Shown here one piece after another: positions 11,936 through 24,967 of a stretch of DNA of 45,171 bases. The stretch covers positions 1-45,171 of the forward strand of contig DAOUMB010000068.1 of the NCBI GenBank assembly GCA_034414335.1, written 5' to 3'. The position numbers and the translations under genes were made by a program. A model generated the notes under the pieces. The model made no database searches. It worked only from the letters and a program-made list of their open reading frames with translations, and was not told the DNA's origin. How positions within the stretch are numbered: position 1 is the first letter of the stretch; each line of letters begins with the position of its first letter. The DNA comes from Dehalococcoidia bacterium. GTDB taxonomy: Bacteria; Chloroflexota; Dehalococcoidia; GIF9; AB-539-J10.

Positions 11936-12026
11936 GGAGGGGTGACCGAGCGGCTTATGGTGGCGGTCTTGAAAACCGCTTTCGCCTTTTTGGCGAACGT
12001 GGGTTCGAATCCCACCCCCTCCGCCA
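11936..12026 (+). tRNA. tRNA-Ser (anticodon UGA), CCA encoded
   Basis: Folded by hand: acceptor GGAGGGG/CCCCTCC, 3-bp D stem ACC/GGT, anticodon stem GCGGT/ACCGC with loop CTTGAAA (UGA). The long variable arm is TCGCC-TTTTT-GGCGA, the T arm is GTGGG-TTCGAAT-CCCAC, the discriminator is G, and CCA follows. Confidence 0.95.
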
Positions 12027-16443: not shown

Positions 16444-17337
16444 ATGGCAGAAATTATTTATCTCAACGGCCAACTTGTCCCCCGCTCCAAAGCCAAGCTA
16501 TCGCTATTTGACCACGGCTTCCTCTACGGACACGGGCTATTTGAGACCATGCGGGCCTATAATGGGCATATCTTTCGCCTCGACCGTCACCTGGCTCGCC
16601 TTCAATGTTCCGCCCAGAGCCTTGGTCTCGCAAGCAGGTTTGCCGCTTCTGACCTAGAAACCGCCTGCATACAAACTCTAAATGCTAATAAGCTCAAGGA
16701 CGCTCGCCTGAGGCTTACTGTTTCAGCCGGAGAAGGCGACATGACGCCTGACCCCGACACCCGCTCCAACCCCACTGTTCTGGTCACCGCCCAAAATCTT
16801 GTCCCCTTACCCCCCGAAAAATATGAATCAGGTTTTAAAGCAGCGCTGTCCTCCCTGCGCCGCAATAGCCAGTCGCCTCTATCCCGGCTAAAATCTACCT
16901 GCTACCTGAGTAACATCTTAGCCCGAATGGAAGCCAGGGCTGCTGGATGCGATGAAGCCATCCTACTCAATGAACGTGGTTACCTGGCCGAAGGCAGCAC
17001 CACCAATATTTTCTTGGTGAGTAAAGGCAAGCTCGTTACTCCCTCTTTAGAAAGTGGCGTCTTGCCCGGCATCACCAGAGAGGCAGTTCTGGAAATAGCT
17101 CAGGCTTCAAACATAAAAACTGTGGAAAGACAGGTGGAGTTAAAGGAGCTAATCGAGGCTGAGGAAGCATTTGTTACCAATTCCATACTGGAGCTTATGC
17201 CCCTGACCTGCTTTGATGGCAAGCCCATCGGCTCAGGCAAAGCCGGCCAGCTAAGCAAAAAGTTAATGGCTGCTTATAGAAAACTCATAAACGAGGCCGT
17301 AGTAAGCAGGACGATAACATCCACAGGCGTTGACTAA
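16444..17337 (+). CDS. pabC: class IV aminotransferase-fold protein, probably aminodeoxychorismate lyase
   Basis: It has class IV PLP-fold motifs (LFDHGFLYGHGLFETMRAYNG, LNERGYLAEGSTTNIF, GVLPGITR). The PabC assignment rests on the pabB-pabA context. IlvE or D-amino-acid aminotransferase remain possible. Confidence 0.6.
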   Translation: MAEIIYLNGQLVPRSKAKLSLFDHGFLYGHGLFETMRAYNGHIFRLDRHLARLQCSAQSLGLASRFAASDLETACIQTLNANKLKDARLRLTVSAGEGDMTPDPDTRSNPTVLVTAQNLVPLPPEKYESGFKAALSSLRRNSQSPLSRLKSTCYLSNILARMEARAAGCDEAILLNERGYLAEGSTTNIFLVSKGKLVTPSLESGVLPGITREAVLEIAQASNIKTVERQVELKELIEAEEAFVTNSILELMPLTCFDGKPIGSGKAGQLSKKLMAAYRKLINEAVVSRTITSTGVD

Positions 17338-17456
17338 AGGCACATCGAGGGATAGTATATGACTAGCCAAGGAGTTTTGACTGATATTCTTGGGCATGGT
17401 GGATTGATCTAAACAAATTTATACCACCATCTAAATACCCTTGGGAGGTTGATATT

Positions 17457-18197
17457 ATGCTTGAATATGTTCCCACAGGTATCCCTGGCGCCGACAAGAT
17501 TCTTGGGGAGAAAGGAATACCGAGGGGCCACAGCATCTTGGTTGCTGGAGGACCTGGAAGCGGTAAAACCACCTTTGCCATCCAGTTTCTGTATATAGGA
17601 GCTACAGAACACAACGAGCCTGGAATCTATATATCACTTGATGAAGACCCTGAGGATGTGAAAAAGAACATGTCGAAATTCGGGTGGGACCTTGGCAAGC
17701 TTGAGCAGGATAAGAAACTCGCCTTCATCAATGTTTCTCCGGTTCGGGTGACATCATCAGAAAAAGCTGGTCTCATTCAGCTGGGAATGAAGGAATTCAA
17801 GCTTATTAAGCTGCTAGAGGCAATCAGAGAAGGTATAGATGATGTTAAAGCCAAGAGGGTGGTTATTGACCCCATTACTATCTTCACCCTGCAATACCCT
17901 GACGAAGTGGAGCGCATATACGCTATGAGAGACCTGATAGCTGATTTTAGGAAAACTGGCTGCACCAACCTGTTAATCTCCGAACTAAGAGGCACAGGCC
18001 TGGAAAGGGAGCATCAATTCGAGGAGTATCTGGCACAAGGGGTTATCCTGCTTCGCACGGTGATGAAGGATGACAAGTTGACCCGGATGTTTCAGGTGGA
18101 GAAAATGCGCGGCCTGGCGGTTGACAATCAGCCGCGCCCGTATAACATAACCAGTAGCGGAATAGAGGTATATCCTACCCTGACTGTCTTCAAGTAG
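17457..18197 (+). CDS. stand-alone single-domain KaiC-like (RecA-superfamily) ATPase
   Basis: 246 aa with a GGGAGG RBS. It has Walker A GGPGSGKTT, acidic SLDEDPED and Walker B RVVIDPIT. The N-terminus GIPGADKILGEKGIPRGHSILVAG is typical of KaiC/COG0467-type ATPases. Confidence 0.85.
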   Translation: MLEYVPTGIPGADKILGEKGIPRGHSILVAGGPGSGKTTFAIQFLYIGATEHNEPGIYISLDEDPEDVKKNMSKFGWDLGKLEQDKKLAFINVSPVRVTSSEKAGLIQLGMKEFKLIKLLEAIREGIDDVKAKRVVIDPITIFTLQYPDEVERIYAMRDLIADFRKTGCTNLLISELRGTGLEREHQFEEYLAQGVILLRTVMKDDKLTRMFQVEKMRGLAVDNQPRPYNITSSGIEVYPTLTVFK

Positions 18198-18208
18198 GGA
18201 GGAGAGGG

Positions 18209-19951
18209 ATGTCGTTAGCCGAAATACAGGAACCGCCAGATAAAGGTATGACCCTGCTGGCTGGTGCTCCTGGAGCTGGGAAATCCACCTTCTGCCACCA
18301 GGTAGTCCTGAAGAGCATAGCTCTAGACAAGCCGGTCATCTTCGTCACCACTGAGCGACGCCCCGCTGAGATCATAGAGCTATTGCGTGAAAGGGGTATA
18401 GGCGAGATGGTCGGGTTGAACTTTGTTGATGCCTTCACTGAGACAGTGGGGCTGACATGCACCCAGCGCTTAGACACGGTGTGTGCTAACTGTGCCGACT
18501 TGAACAGCCTCAGCATCGCCGTTACCAGATTACAGGAGAGGACGGGGCCAAAGGGTGTCCTTCTTGTCTTTGATTCCCTCACCTCTCCATATCTCTTTAA
18601 TGGTATGGAGTTAATCAAGTTCATGAGGCTGTTTCTATCTAAGTTTGCCTCTGAAGGGAACTCGGTGTTGGCCTTGATGGATGAGGGCTGCGGCAAGGAA
18701 GAAGACCTGGGAGCCATGATGAGCGTCGCTGATGGCATCATCAGGATGGAGACGAAAGAGGGCTCAAGAATCATAAACGTGGTCAAACACTCCAAAGTGA
18801 CACCAACAGAAATTAAGCTGCCAGTAACAGGAAGCACTGCAGTCCCATTTCGTGTTCTGGATACTTTTTGGGAGTCGCACGCTAAATCTGGTTTTGGCAC
18901 AGGGGCTAAACCACCAATTCGCACTGAGATGGGGGATTTCGTGAACGTCTTCTGGCTAAGTTTCGTCACCTGGGCTGGGATGCTTTGGGACCCCAAAAGA
19001 TTCCCTTCCCTGCTTTACGACCTGACAAAGGATACTATTGGCCAGGCGATAAAACTGGTTATGGGTAAAAAAGCCCCATGGTATTTTAGGCTACCGTTTA
19101 GATTCCTCCGCCCAAAAAGTTGCAGCAATATCGGGGCGGTAAAAAGAGTCTTCCCGCGTTTCGAAAAAGGGCGACGTGAACATGACAGAGACAGAATGTT
19201 GGAATATGTTAGTGAAATCTCGAAAACAGATGAGCACTACTTTAGAGCCTACGAAGGTGCCTCATGCTGGGGACTGGAAAACATTGGAGCGCCATTATGC
19301 TTCAGTGACGCCGCCGACCTGGCCGGGACGTTGAAAAGTATGGAAAAACAAGAGCGGGACTGGAATGTGGTTGAAACGGCATGCGTCGGGGAAGGAGCCC
19401 CCTGCTGCGAGTTCAAGGCAGTCCCCGGCGAATTGGATGAACTCGAATCCCGCCTCACCGCATTAGACAGCTCAATAGTACAGAGAATAGTGGAGCGGCT
19501 GATAGAATATGTCGCCGCATTCATGCTCCAGGGAAAGCCCTTGGGTGAGAGACCAACGTTGGGAAGTGGGGTTTATACACATGGATTCGTAGCTGGCTTG
19601 GCGCTTCCGGCGTTAGCCAGTGAAAGATACCGAATGGCCATTAGGATGGGTGGTGCTATGACTGGAAAAAGGCTTGGCGAACGCCTGATGAATGCCGGAA
19701 TAGGGGAAGATGAAGTAGTTAAGCGTGTGACTGGTTTCATGGAATACTGCAAAGTGGGCAAGATAAGCATAGGTGAGACCATAAGGATGAAGGAGAACTG
19801 CGAGACCTTCGGATTAGAAATTGGGGAGCCTTGCTGCTTCTTCACCACCGGTTTCCTGAACGGTCTTTTCTCAGCAGTCAAAAACCAACATGTCAGGGAA
19901 GTAAAGTGTATTGCCGCTGGAGACGCTTACTGCGAGTGGGAAATCGTATAG
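18209..19951 (+). CDS. KaiC-like ATPase fused to two V4R-like modules, paralog 1
   Basis: It starts 11 nt after the previous stop and has a GGGAGGAGAGGG RBS. The N-terminal ~225 aa carry Walker A GAPGAGKST, FVTTE and Walker B LLVFDSLTS. The C-terminal ~350 aa contain two modules ending ETACVGEGAPCCEFKAVPGE and PCCFFTTGFLNGLFSAVKNQHVREVKCIAAGDAYCEWEIV-stop, which is the classic V4R C-terminal signature. Confidence 0.8.
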   Translation: MSLAEIQEPPDKGMTLLAGAPGAGKSTFCHQVVLKSIALDKPVIFVTTERRPAEIIELLRERGIGEMVGLNFVDAFTETVGLTCTQRLDTVCANCADLNSLSIAVTRLQERTGPKGVLLVFDSLTSPYLFNGMELIKFMRLFLSKFASEGNSVLALMDEGCGKEEDLGAMMSVADGIIRMETKEGSRIINVVKHSKVTPTEIKLPVTGSTAVPFRVLDTFWESHAKSGFGTGAKPPIRTEMGDFVNVFWLSFVTWAGMLWDPKRFPSLLYDLTKDTIGQAIKLVMGKKAPWYFRLPFRFLRPKSCSNIGAVKRVFPRFEKGRREHDRDRMLEYVSEISKTDEHYFRAYEGASCWGLENIGAPLCFSDAADLAGTLKSMEKQERDWNVVETACVGEGAPCCEFKAVPGELDELESRLTALDSSIVQRIVERLIEYVAAFMLQGKPLGERPTLGSGVYTHGFVAGLALPALASERYRMAIRMGGAMTGKRLGERLMNAGIGEDEVVKRVTGFMEYCKVGKISIGETIRMKENCETFGLEIGEPCCFFTTGFLNGLFSAVKNQHVREVKCIAAGDAYCEWEIV

Positions 19952-19974
19952 TCAACAACAATATGGGGGATAGC

Positions 19975-21765
19975 ATGGAGAAAAGGAGACTGTCATTAGC
20001 CGAGATACAGGAAGTGCCGAAGGAGAGCTTGATTCTGCTGACAGGGACCCCGGGAGCTGGAAAGTCCACCTTCTGCCACCAGGTGGTGCTCAATGGGCTG
20101 GCCATGGAAAAACCAGTCGTATTCGTGACCACGGAGCACGGCCCTACCGAGGTCATAGGTCTTCTAAGAGAAAGAGGCATGGGTGAACCCCCACCTGGCG
20201 CGCTCAGTTTCATTGATGCCTTCGGGGAAACTGTTGGAGTGACAACCCCGGAGCGGCCAGATACCGTGAATGCCAACTGTGAAGACCTGAACAGTATAAG
20301 TATGGCTATTGCCAAAGTGCAGGAAAAAATTGGCAGGAAAGATATTCTCCTCGCTTTTGATTCCTTGACATCCCCATACCTTTTCAACGAAAAGGAGGTG
20401 TTTAGATTTATGAGGCTATGCCTGGCGAGGTTCGCTTCTGAAGGGAATTCAGTATTAGCCTTGATGGATGAGGGCTGCGGCAAAGAGGAGGACCTTACAG
20501 CCATGATGAGCACGGCGGACGGCATCGTCAAGATAGAAACAAAGGAGGATAAGCGGCTCTTCAACGTCGTGAAGCACCCGAAAGTGAGACCGACAAGAAT
20601 TGAGATTCCCATTGAACCCGAAAGGATTGGACTCGAAGAGCGCGTCATCAATCCTGATATGTTGGCACGGTTCCTTCGAGGAGATGAAGCAGTGATGAGA
20701 AGAGAGGTCGGGGACTTCGTGAGCCTGTTCTGGCCGAACTTCGCCCACTGGAGCGGGATGCTATGGGATCCTAAACGGTTCCCAATAATTGTGTACGAGA
20801 TGAACAAGGAGGACAATCCCTCCATGTTCAAGCTGATGATGGAGAATGAAGCGATCAAACGCGCCGTGATTCCTTGGCACAAGAGCCTTCTCCTCAGATT
20901 CATGCTGAAGAGCTTCAGTAAGGTAAAAGACATGAAGAACCTGGCGAAATATACATCGCTTGGCCTCCCGAAACATGAGCGCAGCGGCATCGGTGAATAC
21001 CTTGAAGATGCATCTAAGACCGACGAACATTATGTCAGAATATACGAATCCTCCGAATGCTGGGGATTCGAAAATGTAGGCGCAACGATGGCTTTCTATC
21101 TTCCCCCTTTGATAGCAGGCTTTCTAAAGGGATTTGGGAGCTTGCAAGGACTCGAGAGGGACTGGAATTGTGTTGAGACAAAGTGCATAGGTTTAGGGGA
21201 CCCCTACTGTGAGTTCAAGTTGGTGCCTGGGGAAATCGAGGAGTTGAAGGCTTCTTTAGAGAAGGACATCTCGGTGATCCAAAGGATACATCAACGATTG
21301 ATGCACCACCTCATGGAGTTTCTGCTCCATGGAAAGCCGCTCTTGGAGAGACCTACGCTGGGAAGCCAAGTGAACGTCCATAGGGTCTGTCACGCGATGG
21401 TTTTTCCTGCCCTGGCTGGCGAGAGGTATCGAATGGTGTTGGGGATGGGGGGAGCCAGGTCGGGGAAGCTGGTCGGTGAACGCCTGTTGGAAGCTGGGTT
21501 AAAGGAGGATGAGGCCGTGAAACGTGTTCTAAATTTCCTAAACCGATGCAAGGTTGGAAAAGTTTCAGTGGCTGAAACGATAAGAATAGTGGAGAACTGT
21601 GAGAGTGCCCAGACGAAACTGTTCACGACGAAGGAGAAGACCCCCTCGTGCTTCTTCACCACTGGCTTCCTGAACGGACTCTTCTCGGCAGTTAAGAACC
21701 AGCACGTCAGGGAGAGCAAGTGCATAGTTGCCGGTGACCCCTACTGCGAATGGGAAATCGTATAG
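19975..21765 (+). CDS. KaiC-like ATPase fused to two V4R-like modules, paralog 2
   Basis: Same architecture as paralog 1 (GTPGAGKST, LLAFDSLTS, ETKCIGLGDPYCEFKLVPGE, ESKCIVAGDPYCEWEIV-stop). I prefer the start ATG at 19975 (MEKRRLSLAEIQEV, GGGGGA upstream), with 19963 as the alternative. The ORF-track start at 19831 lies inside paralog 1 and is rejected. Confidence 0.8.
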   Translation: MEKRRLSLAEIQEVPKESLILLTGTPGAGKSTFCHQVVLNGLAMEKPVVFVTTEHGPTEVIGLLRERGMGEPPPGALSFIDAFGETVGVTTPERPDTVNANCEDLNSISMAIAKVQEKIGRKDILLAFDSLTSPYLFNEKEVFRFMRLCLARFASEGNSVLALMDEGCGKEEDLTAMMSTADGIVKIETKEDKRLFNVVKHPKVRPTRIEIPIEPERIGLEERVINPDMLARFLRGDEAVMRREVGDFVSLFWPNFAHWSGMLWDPKRFPIIVYEMNKEDNPSMFKLMMENEAIKRAVIPWHKSLLLRFMLKSFSKVKDMKNLAKYTSLGLPKHERSGIGEYLEDASKTDEHYVRIYESSECWGFENVGATMAFYLPPLIAGFLKGFGSLQGLERDWNCVETKCIGLGDPYCEFKLVPGEIEELKASLEKDISVIQRIHQRLMHHLMEFLLHGKPLLERPTLGSQVNVHRVCHAMVFPALAGERYRMVLGMGGARSGKLVGERLLEAGLKEDEAVKRVLNFLNRCKVGKVSVAETIRIVENCESAQTKLFTTKEKTPSCFFTTGFLNGLFSAVKNQHVRESKCIVAGDPYCEWEIV

Positions 21766-21788
21766 TCAACAACAATATGGGGGATAGC

Positions 21789-23590
21789 ATGGAGAAAAGA
21801 GGATTATCATTAACCAAAATACAGGAAGTTCCGAAGGAGAGCTTGATTCTGCTGTCAGGACCCCCGGGAGCAGGAAAATCCACCTTCTGTCATCAAGCGG
21901 TGCTCAACGGCCTGGCCATAGACAGACCAGTCGTATTCGTGACCACGGAGCACGAGCCTACCGAGGTCATACGCCTTTTAAGGGAAAAGGGCATGGGCAA
22001 GCTTCCGCCTAATGCGCTCAGTTTCATTGATGCTTTTGGGGAAACTGTGGGAGTGACAACCCCGGAGCGGCCAGACACCGTGAGTGCCAACTGCGAAGAC
22101 TTGAACAGTATAAGTATGGCTATCGCCAAAGTGCAGGAGAAAATTAGCAGAAGAGATATTTTCCTCGTTTTTGATTCCTTGACATCGCCCTATCTTTTTA
22201 ACAAGGAGGAAGTGTTCCGATTTATGAGGCTATGCCTGGCGAAGTTCGCTTCTGAGGGGAACTCGGTGCTGGCTTTAATGGATGAAGGCTGTGGCAAGGA
22301 AGAAGACTTGGGAGCTATGATGAGTGTCGCCGACGGCATCATCAAGATGGAGATAAGTGAGAGCTCAAGGACTTTAAATGTATTGAAGCACCCAAAGGTA
22401 AGGCCGACAAGGATTGAAGTCCCAATAGAAGCCAAACCGACAATCAAATCGACACTGCAGTTCGAGCCGAGTGTGATGAGGCAATTTGAGAAAAGTTGTC
22501 TCGGACAAGAAGAAGCCGCAGTGAGAAGGGAGGTTGGGGATTTCGTCAACGCGTTCTGGCCAAACCTTGCCCACTGGAGTGGCATGCTCTGGGACCCCAA
22601 AGGGTTCCCGACGATGATATACGACTTAAACAAGGAAGACTTCTCTATGGCACGGATGTGGATGTCATTTGCTCCGTGGCGCATGAGGTTTCTAGGAAAC
22701 CTCCTTTTTTTCTTCAAGCCCTTGGGTTCTTACCCAAGAACTTCAGCCGGGTAAAAGACATGAAAAAACTTTCCAAAGTGTTGGGGGGCAGTCCGTTTGG
22801 AAGCGCAGCGCGGATGGAGCGAAGCGGCATCTCGGAATACCTTGAGGGTGTCTCTAAGACCGATGAACACTACGTAAGAGTGTACGAGAGCTCTGATTGC
22901 TGTGGATTCGAAAACATCGGTGCCACCATAGCTTCCCATCTCCCTCCGGCTATAGCAGGCCAGATTATGGGGCTTGAGAAGGGCGATAGAAACTGGAACG
23001 CCGTGGAGACGAAGTGCATAGGACTGGGAGACCCCTACTGTGAATTCAAGCTGGTGCCCGGGGAAATTGATGAGCTAAAGGTTTCCCTGGAGAAAAACAG
23101 CGAAGTTGTTGAAAGGATACATGAACGGTTGATGGAGCGCCTCATGGGATTTCTGCTCGATAACACTCCCCTTGTGGAAAGACCTCGGTTGGGAAGCGAT
23201 GTGAACCTTGTTGTAGCCTCTTGCGCTATGGGTTTTCCCCATCTAGGTGAGAGATATTCAATGGCACAAAGGATGGGTGGTGCCAGATCAGGGAGGGAAA
23301 TTGGTAAACGCCTTATCGAAGCTGGATTAAAAGAGGACGAAGCAATAAAGCAGGTCATCGACTTCATGAACTACTGCAAGGTGGGCAAGGTCACTTTGAG
23401 TGAGACGATTAGAATAAGAGAGAACTGCGAATCCATTGACGCTGCCCTCTTTACCACTATCAGGGAGCCTTGCTGCTACTTCACCACCGGCTTCCTGAAT
23501 GGACTCTTCTCGGCAGTTAAAAAACAGCATGTCAGGGAAGTGAGGTGCATTGCTGCCGGTGACCCCTACTGCGAGTGGGAGATTATATAG
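21789..23590 (+). pseudogene. KaiC-like::V4R::V4R paralog 3, reading frame broken once (-1) near 22705-22712
   Basis: ORF 21750-22754 aligns with paralog 2 from MEKRGLSL to ..APWRMRFLGN. ORF 22496-23590, in the -1 frame, aligns from ..FLPKNFSRVKDMKKL to CIAAGDPYCEWEII-stop. One frame change restores a protein of about 600 aa and there are no other stops. It may be a genuine pseudogene, a homopolymer sequencing error or recoding. Confidence 0.7.
22706..22738 (+). other. candidate -1 frameshift cassette: T TTT TTC heptamer, 8-nt spacer, 7-bp stem-loop
   Basis: In the upstream frame the codons read ct[t ttt ttc] (22706-22712), which matches X XXY YYZ. CTTGGGT (22721-22727), loop TCTT and ACCCAAG (22732-22738) form a perfect hairpin. 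A -1 shift here joins exactly the two homologous frames. Confidence 0.35.
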
Positions 23591-23602
23591 TTATCAACTC
23601 AA

Positions 23603-24724: not shown

Positions 24725-24967
24725 TGTTGTTTTCTTTCTAGGAATTGTAGCATAAGCTTGCCCCTTTGTATTCGGTATCACCCTATGGACCCAAGCTGGC
24801 GTAGACGAGGCGTACACCTCGGAAAGTAAGTGTCTCAAACCTGCTTTGATGGTAAGCCTATCGGCACAGAAACAGTAAGGTAGCTAATCGGAAAGCTAAT
24901 TAGCGCCTGCGAAGAACTTGTAGAACAAAGGGGCTCTTAATAAGTGTTACCTTGCAAGACCTAGCCC

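Follow-up and report, generated by a model that had tools for sequence, protein, structure and literature searches.

A conserved cassette of a stand-alone KaiC-like ATPase, KaiC-V4R fusion proteins, and a predicted VIT1-type iron exporter in Dehalococcoidia and archaea

Archaeal KaiC-like ATPases have been proposed to act as signaling hubs (Makarova, Galperin and Koonin 2017, as cited in PMC5847659), and some are already known to be fused to sensor or output domains, REC and HalOD1 among them (PMC5847659). For few of the KaiC-like ATPases that are proposed as major hubs beyond the clock of cyanobacteria are both the input and the output defined. Here we describe a locus from a Dehalococcoidia bacterium (contig DAOUMB010000068.1, positions 1 to 45,171; we refer to this whole stretch of 45,171 nucleotides [nt] as the window). 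In it, a stand-alone KaiC-like ATPase (K) is followed by three paralogs that each combine a KaiC-like domain with two V4R domains (F), and then by a convergent gene for a predicted iron exporter of the VIT1 family (VIT). The window contains one copy of a conserved, horizontally spread cassette with three parts: K, an array of F genes, and the VIT1 exporter. In other words, the conserved unit is K-F(n)-VIT.

Several described systems resemble parts of this locus. PH0284, PH0186, Sso2452, and ArlH/FlaH share the RecA/KaiC fold and the P-loop with K and with the N-terminal domain of F. These are archaeal single-domain KaiC-like ATPases; what sets the locus apart is that one canonical K is consistently paired with one to five divergent double-V4R F proteins, that VIT1 is a constant partner, and that the K/F cassette is abundant in Bacteria (Dehalococcoidia). 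GvpD is a KaiC-like P-loop regulator of the gas-vesicle activator GvpE and acts by protein-protein contact; unlike F, it has no V4R domain, and its context and taxa differ. The F-type domain has weak matches to GvpD_P-loop and to DUF7504, near or below the cutoff.

On the sensor side, the methanogen-specific redox regulator MsvR has three conserved V4R cysteines and strictly anaerobic hosts in common with F. It consists of an N-terminal helix-turn-helix (HTH) domain and one V4R domain; F lacks the HTH domain and combines a KaiC-like ATPase with two V4R domains. In MaMsvR, these three cysteines control how DNA binding responds to redox conditions (PMC3729527). The modules of F also resemble the A domains of XylR, DmpR, MopR, and PoxR: they have the same helical N-terminal part, the V4R hairpins, and the Cys-Glu-Cys-Cys site, which was shown experimentally to bind zinc in PoxR, MopR, and DmpR (bioRxiv 10.1101/2021.01.17.427014). 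However, the sequence identity is just 12-17%, and F lacks the sigma54 AAA+ and DNA-binding domains (no Pfam match in any of the three F genes).

As for the exporter, MbfA-type membrane-bound ferritins export iron and have a role in oxidative stress (PMC7762939). [quoted passage not shown] The characterized MbfA proteins are alphaproteobacterial and controlled by Irr, whereas the subfamily in the window adjoins K/F in Chloroflexota and archaea, and the first half of its di-iron site is degenerate (E-x2-D replaces E-x2-H).

In the searchable literature, we found no account of the KaiC+V4R architecture, as a reading of the sequence alone (hereafter, the sequence-only reading) had expected, or of its link to VIT1; the 2017 paper on KaiC hubs is outside this coverage and may list the fusion. 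Databases do annotate the architecture automatically, for instance as [quoted passage not shown]

The genes of the cassette in the window are as follows.

17457-18197, + strand: K (g1), a stand-alone, single-domain KaiC-CI-like ATPase of 246 amino acids
18209-19951, + strand: F1 (g2), 580 amino acids, with KaiC-like residues ~1-225, a linker, and V4R modules at ~240-410 and ~420-580
19975-21765, + strand: F2 (g3), 596 amino acids, a paralog of F1, with a KaiC domain and two V4R domains by Pfam
21789-23590, + strand: F3 (g4), a frame-disrupted paralog
[quoted passage not shown]

Much of the sequence-only reading of this locus held up. The list of open reading frames (ORFs) has the four co-directional units on the + strand, and the spacers are as short as it had stated: 11 nt between g1 and g2, and 11 or 23 nt, depending on the choice of start codon, for g2-g3 and g3-g4. 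(There is a second possible ATG for g3 at 19963, and a GGGGGA run that resembles a ribosome-binding site precedes the ATG.) Gene 1 is indeed a single-domain KaiC ATPase of 246 amino acids, and g2 and g3 match both the KaiC and the V4R profiles above the cutoffs. The description of genes 2 to 4 as fusions of about 580-600 amino acids is right for g2 and g3, but gene 4 consists of two overlapping ORFs in different frames. The expected flanks, genes similar to pabB, pabA, and pabC upstream and VIT1 downstream, are both present. A sensor-coupled ATPase switch is still the natural reading of these genes, and the motifs of the ATP sites are intact.

We searched GTDB-representative genomes with an alignment of F as the query, which gave 52 loci, and we clustered their ORFs by BLAST. 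(Loci from our scans are designated by L numbers.) The bacterial carriers of F are Dehalococcoidia, Anaerolineae, other Chloroflexota, and bins of Clostridia and Pirellulales; the archaeal carriers are many Bathyarchaeia, Asgard archaea (Jordarchaeum, Hermod, and Promethearchaeota), and Methanolliviera. Besides K, the sole recurrent neighbor of F was a homolog of VIT, which is present in 21 of these 52 loci and in 11 of the 12 that include K and at least 1.5 kb of flanking sequence on each side. A scan of metagenomes that was seeded with K identified 343 relatives, of which 80 loci were kept. In both sets (52 loci from genomes and 80 from metagenomes), an F gene comes after K wherever the sequence runs on, and the arrays contain one to five F genes. 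Where the contig of a K-seeded locus continues past the end of the array, a convergent VIT follows in about 32 of 35 cases. VIT is thus nearly constant, but on the other side, upstream of K, the genes vary freely. In the reverse test, which was seeded with VIT and so picked contigs independently of F, K/F was present on all three long contigs.

In Chloroflexota, VIT lies tail-to-tail with the last F, while in Bathyarchaeia it is head-to-head (divergent) with K. Because the adjacency is kept despite this change in orientation between domains of life, we consider the linkage to be functional, not accidental. The coupling of K/F to VIT1 is well supported, and the exporter is the most likely target or partner of the K/F module. 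The sequence-only reading had correctly noticed a convergent iron exporter, but it regarded this gene as part of a housekeeping flank, when it is the module's most conserved neighbor in Chloroflexota, Bathyarchaeia, and Asgard archaea alike. The gap between the last F and VIT is 12 nt in the window (23591-23602); for the Chloroflexota loci of the F-seeded scan, it is 13-16 nt. Tail-to-tail junctions of 12-16 nt occur in L001, L002, L003, L013, L014, L015, L021, and L037, which include divergent Chloroflexota and a Jordarchaeum bin. A terminator would not fit into such a junction; the two convergent transcripts must therefore overlap, and antisense interference is possible.

The exporter matches VIT1 (PF01988) with E = 1.8e-63 and 214.7 bits (cutoff of 28.1) and the structure of EgVIT1 (6iu3 in the PDB) with E = 1.8e-28. 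For the copy in the window, the match of the N-terminal part to Rubrerythrin (PF02915) is below the cutoff of 22.8 bits (16.2 bits, E = 0.014); an archaeal ortholog, from L023, scores above it (32.1 bits, E = 1.8e-7). The second E-x2-H motif of the exporter (DERLH) is invariant; at the first motif, the archaeal copies have E-x2-H and the window has E-x2-D.

K is closely related to the CI domain of KaiC. It matches PF06745 with 219.6 bits (E = 4.9e-65; the cutoff is 26.6 bits), and its best matches in the PDB are KaiC proteins (E = 2.4e-56), with the alignment covering the CI domain. In that alignment, the LDED of K corresponds to the catalytic FEE(S/T), and KMRG corresponds to LKFRG/LKLRG of KaiC. 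The K-x-R-G motif contains the trans-acting Lys and Arg of KaiC-type rings. Walker A (GGPGSGKT), Walker B (VVIDPIT), LDED, and KMRG are all invariant in our alignment of K (A5).

K is also unusually conserved. It is 87-96% identical within Dehalococcoidia and 70-76% identical between bacterial and archaeal copies. Between the window and L134, the identity of K is 98% (69 codons differ synonymously and 6 nonsynonymously), as compared to 79% for PabC, 84% for FumC, 80% for VIT, and just 52-69% for the F proteins. Thus, K is far more conserved than housekeeping genes are, while the complement of F turns over. The extreme conservation of K fits a hub that must fit many partners, and since K is conserved beyond enzymes of central metabolism and is common to both domains of life, we suggest that its function is important.

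The F proteins are sensor-like fusions. The KaiC-like part matches PF06745 with 46.3 bits for g2, 51.1 bits for g3, and 56.8 bits for the 5' part of g4, all above the cutoff given for K. V4R (PF02830; cutoff of 31 bits) matches with 64.6 bits for g2, 55.1 bits for g3, and 56.1 bits for the 3' part of g4, in two stretches each. F1 and F2 are 55% identical, and the F paralogs overall are at least 50% identical. In the KaiC-like domain, Walker A (GxPGAGKS), Walker B (FDSLTS), and a single catalytic glutamate (E49, in FVTTE) are invariant. More broadly, the motifs that had been read from the sequence (GxPGAGKST, FVTTE, FDSLTS, and E-x2-C-x7-C-E-[FW]) are invariant or nearly so across 71 homologs.

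We also built an AlphaFold 2 (AF2) model of g2 from an alignment of 71 sequences. This model has a mean confidence (predicted local distance difference test, or pLDDT) of 80.6 and a predicted template modeling score of 0.81, and Foldseek superposes its N-terminal 205 residues on PH0284, Sso2452, KaiC-CI, and FlaH. Matches for the full-length model were dominated by KaiC; residues 240-580 were modeled alone, with a pLDDT of 84.5. Foldseek matched this part to DmpR, PoxR, MopR, and the V4R protein MJ1460, and then to Bet3/TRAPPC3 and H-NOX, with probabilities near 1 and E values of 1e-3 to 1e-1. Each F module is thus predicted to be a complete V4R-type sensor domain of about 170 residues, with helices and a hairpin sheet. 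When we compared the sequence of F to the PDB, only the KaiC part had a match (PH0284, E = 8e-6), and the V4R part had none.

Both V4R modules include a putative metal site. In module 2, it is C543-x20-E564-x2-C567-x7-C575, which matches the zinc site of XylR (C149/E172/C175/C183). In module 1, it is E389, C392, and C400, with C353 as the likely first ligand. These residues are invariant or nearly so. The V4R signature that the sequence-only reading had picked out (E-x2-C-x3-G-x3-C-E) corresponds to this Cys-Glu-Cys-Cys site. Four more cysteines outside of the zinc tetrads (C95, C161, C514, and C531) are invariant as well. Among named sequence families, the one closest to the C-terminal V4R of F is MsvR (NCBIfam NF053755), with E = 2e-15 and 57.1 bits across model positions 133-236 only, which are the V4R part; this is far below the cutoff for the family, 220 bits.

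By phylogeny, the subfamilies of F paralogs are old, with bacterial and archaeal members intermixed; g3 of the window is orthologous to the second F of L008, and g4 is orthologous to its third F. We observed that the F proteins from bins of Bathyarchaeia, Methanolliviera, and Dehalococcoidaceae (L017, L018, and L024) cluster tightly in the tree, which reflects either very recent transfer between domains or mis-binned contigs. In a collection of 1.84 billion representatives, clustered at 50% identity, full-length F collapses to about ten, so the family is compact. At 90% clustering, it has at least 1,844 members, which shows that F is abundant in sediment metagenomes.

A variant of F with a DNA-binding domain may link many of these cassettes to transcription. 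In L047-L049, an F-type KaiC domain (about 60% identical to that of g2-g4) is fused to a cyclic-nucleotide-binding domain (cNMP_binding, E = 6e-23) and to HTH_Crp_2 (E = 2e-14), so that the pair of V4R domains is replaced while the context between K and VIT is retained. We call this Crp-type paralog F'. The swap between V4R and Crp occurs directly after the shared linker, and P0134, from our representative library, has the same domain swap. F' is present in L047-L049, L054, L065, L078, L083, L117, L119, L123, L130, and L134, and five of these loci (L065, L083, L117, L119, and L123) have mixed arrays of K, F (V4R), F' (Crp), and VIT. The gene order in L134 (pabA-pabC-K-F-F-F-F'-VIT...FumC) is the same as in the window except for F', which is absent from the window. 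The sequence-only reading had stated that no output domain was visible; this holds for the window but not for the related cassettes, where F' supplies a cNMP-binding domain and a Crp-type HTH. The F-type subtype of KaiC also has fusions to bPH_2 and, more distantly, to REC.

The explanation that we favor, with our confidence about evenly divided, is that K is a hub whose V4R sensors, with MsvR-like Cys3-Glu metal or redox sites, control iron efflux. The components that we infer are a physical interaction between K and F, the nature of the signal, the exporter as the regulated target, and the mode of output. F proteins would dock on the K ring or co-assemble with it, perhaps in the mixed rings that the sequence-only reading had suggested. 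Their V4R modules would report an intracellular cue. By analogy to MsvR, the most likely one is thiol redox state or the binding of iron or zinc at the Cys3-Glu sites; a hydrophobic ligand of the XylR/DmpR kind is less likely. The nucleotide state of the K/F assembly would then set iron efflux. In many related cassettes, the output might be transcriptional, via the F paralog with the cNMP-binding and Crp HTH domains; in the window, it might run through an unlinked copy of F' elsewhere in the genome or through direct contact with the cytosolic ferritin-like domain of the exporter. Four points lead us to favor redox- or metal-responsive efflux: the cysteine sites resemble those of MsvR, the exporter has a predicted rubrerythrin-like domain, the hosts are strict anaerobes, and there is a Crp-type paralog. 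A more specific version, which we offer tentatively and consider doubtful, is that a near-invariant KaiC-CI-like ring serves as a chassis for plug-in V4R or Crp subunits, and that the nucleotide state of the mixed assembly directly gates both the exporter and its transcription. In this version, the cassette would be a novel type of signaling device in prokaryotes, a "sensor array on a hub" that needs no kinase and that Dehalococcoidia, Bathyarchaeia, and Asgard archaea share horizontally.

Several observations weigh against control of iron efflux by a K hub. There is no DNA-binding paralog in the window, so the output route here is a guess. The 80 K-seeded loci are close relatives (88-98% identity of K), not independent samples. 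Many solitary F genes lie far from K and VIT (L010, L011, L036, L038, and L051), so F may have roles beyond the exporter. The Cys3-Glu site of XylR-type proteins is a structural zinc site, so the site in F need not be a sensor. At the strand that positionally matches KMRG of K, F has VVKHPK (with K-H-P at its end), and the alignment of the K and F profiles stops at K172/F154; the arginine finger appears to be lost in F, judging from positional correspondence only (Pfam model coordinates and a strand of the AF2 model). Finally, K and VIT have separate conserved promoter-like blocks, and a comparison of their promoters identified no shared operator, Crp-like palindrome, or common dyad.

The linkage of K/F to VIT would also fit an ATP-driven chaperone or loader that passes iron or an iron/tetrapyrrole cofactor to the ferritin-like domain of the exporter, or that remodels this domain. 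V4R would then be a cargo-binding domain, in parallel to BchJ (a proposed pigment carrier) and Bet3 (which has a lipid channel). The V4R relatives H-NOX and Bet3 bind heme and lipid, respectively, the four additional invariant cysteines could make further metal sites, and the window does not encode a DNA-binding domain. We nevertheless consider a loader to be unlikely: the Crp-type HTH paralog in the same arrays points to regulation, the variable copy number of F (one to five) and its rapid turnover suit sensors better than stoichiometric parts of a machine, and VIT1 and MbfA work without such partners in other organisms (PMC7762939). If instead, in line with the sequence-only reading, K/F is a self-contained ATPase module that is gated by a hydrophobic or aromatic effector, with an output unrelated to its neighbors, then the exporter would be a coincidental flank. 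This would agree with the fold of the V4R modules, which is like that of the phenol sensors DmpR, PoxR, and MopR, with the lack of an output domain among the window's four genes, with the solitary F genes away from VIT, and with the origin of the carriers in anoxic sediments rich in hydrocarbons or organohalides (their sample names include tar biofilm, asphalt seep, and SMTZ). It is improbable, however, given that K/F adjoins VIT in loci from three independent seeds, in two domains of life, and in changed orientation, and that VIT stays constant while the upstream neighbors of K vary freely. Also, the V4R sequence matches MsvR, a regulator that responds to redox, better than any aromatic sensor.

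We see very little chance that the locus encodes a KaiC-type timer or oscillator, with F as input or output adaptors. In the PDB search, the CI domain of KaiC has its closest stand-alone relative in K. However, K consists of one domain only, so it lacks CII and with it the S/T phosphosites, and against the circadian KaiC equivalog models of NCBIfam (NF006799 and TIGR02655), it scores just 126-166 bits, far below the cutoffs (165.8 versus 408 bits and 126.2 versus 546 bits). No KaiA- or KaiB-like ORF was seen beside any cassette, in analyses that were not aimed at these proteins, and the carriers are anaerobes from dark sediments. Anti-phage defense, or another conflict system, is similarly far-fetched. 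The turnover of the F complement next to an invariant K and the horizontal spread across domains are what one might expect of such a system. However, the best matches in PADLOC-DB 2.0 (mads_8, GajB, and PDC-M54A) are weak (E of 6e-7 to 7e-4) and cover the P-loop region only, which bears out the sequence-only reading's view that this is not a defense island. There are no genes for nucleases, toxins, or other effectors; the neighbors are metabolic; the constant partner is a metal transporter; and F paralogs that are at least 50% identical are conserved rather than diversifying.

What makes the cassette useful is that one compact locus combines V4R sensors with Cys3-Glu sites, a DNA-binding variant, and one plausible target with an easily assayed iron phenotype. 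Its carriers are abundant and poorly understood subsurface anaerobes in which the control of iron and redox is essentially unknown. If the coupling of K/F to the exporter is true, then experiments in vitro and in a heterologous host could test the hub hypothesis directly.

The upstream regions of K and VIT contain these features.

17330-17358, + strand: promoter-like site TTGACT-17-TAGTAT, a consensus match only, which overlaps the end of the pabC-like gene
17396-17430, + strand: inverted repeat ATGGTGG-N21-CCACCAT, in the leader of K, downstream of the promoter-like site and ahead of the start codon
17443-17448: ribosome-binding site of K, GGGAGG
24744-24774, - strand: promoter-like block CGAATACAAAG-N11-TGCTACAAT, upstream of the exporter gene, as read from the sequence

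The site at 17330-17358 is a candidate for the start of the K-F operon, and the block TTGACTAAAGG...GGATAGGATATGA recurs upstream of K in the relatives that are linked to pabC. The closest relatives share the inverted repeat in the leader, and cassettes at a greater distance lack it; in L055, it shows one compensatory double change, from T-A to C-G. Rfam has no family or riboswitch that matches the leader of K. Upstream of VIT, AAATACAAAC...TGCTATAAT is found in L002, L003, L015, L047, L058, L075, L082, L092, L120, and L123. Among the sequences upstream of K and VIT, a palindrome, ACACAAAA-N5-TTTTGTGT, is confined to L082, L104, and L107. In our scan for promoters and terminators, the matches were not enriched over shuffled sequences.

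Gene 4 is interrupted at the following site.

22685-22711, + strand: frameshift site, with an 8-bp hairpin (GAGGTTTC-TAG-GAAACCTC) and then a T7 run at 22705-22711

The KaiC part of gene 4 (21789-22754) and the part with two V4R domains (22496-23590) overlap but are read in different frames. With one T added to the T7 run, the gene encodes a protein of 600 amino acids that is 67% identical to g3; relative to the intact ortholog in L008, the window lacks one base within the T/C tract. The break could be an error in sequencing or assembly, a true pseudogene mutation, or slippage. It occurs at a textbook terminator-like element, which was the top-scoring match of the terminator scan, and the codons at the T run fit the slippery pattern U UUU UUC. 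We do not claim programmed slippage because the hairpin is largely accounted for by conserved coding sequence (MRFLxNL), which the intact ortholog of L008 has too. About 6 of the 80 K-seeded loci (L061, L111, L116, L119, L122, and L131) have F genes that are split or broken in frame, and L122 and L131, which are from separate samples, have an identical split. These recurrent splits could reflect decay of paralogs within the arrays or assembly errors among similar repeats.

The junctions within the array are also unusual: about 45 nt (GGGAAATCGTATAGTCAACAACAATATGGGGGATAGCATGGAGAAAAG, + strand) are identical between the g2/g3 junction (19945-19990) and the g3/g4 junction (21760-21805), while the genes that flank them are just 52-67% identical. 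Identical junctions between divergent genes suggest gene conversion or a selected intergenic element. Our query with g2 also returned another contig, of 4 kb, that ends within g3. Farther upstream, a tRNA gene at 11936-12023 (+ strand) is the sole Rfam match within the window.

A few other genes were seen near K or F. Archaeal arrays include additional conserved proteins: c3 (214 amino acids; L022, L023, L028, L030, and L046) and c22 (418 amino acids; L023 and L026). Neither has a match in Pfam, and their hhalign comparisons to F were not significant. The VKHPS motif of c3 is suggestive of the KaiC domain of F, but c3 lacks a P-loop; the N terminus of c22 looks hydrophobic. Genes for PEMT/ICMT-like membrane methyltransferases (c2 and c8) adjoin F in L002, L004, L012, L017, L020, L031, and L034. 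P0159 (349 amino acids) combines a fragment of an E1-E2 (P-type) ATPase with a C-terminal V4R region that matches residues 427-580 of F; it is probably a chimeric gene call, and it would be interesting if the metal pump is truly adjacent. Lastly, L136 (GCA_975901545.1) encodes two VIT1 proteins, two K-like proteins, one F, and a protein of 1,318 amino acids with KaiC domains.

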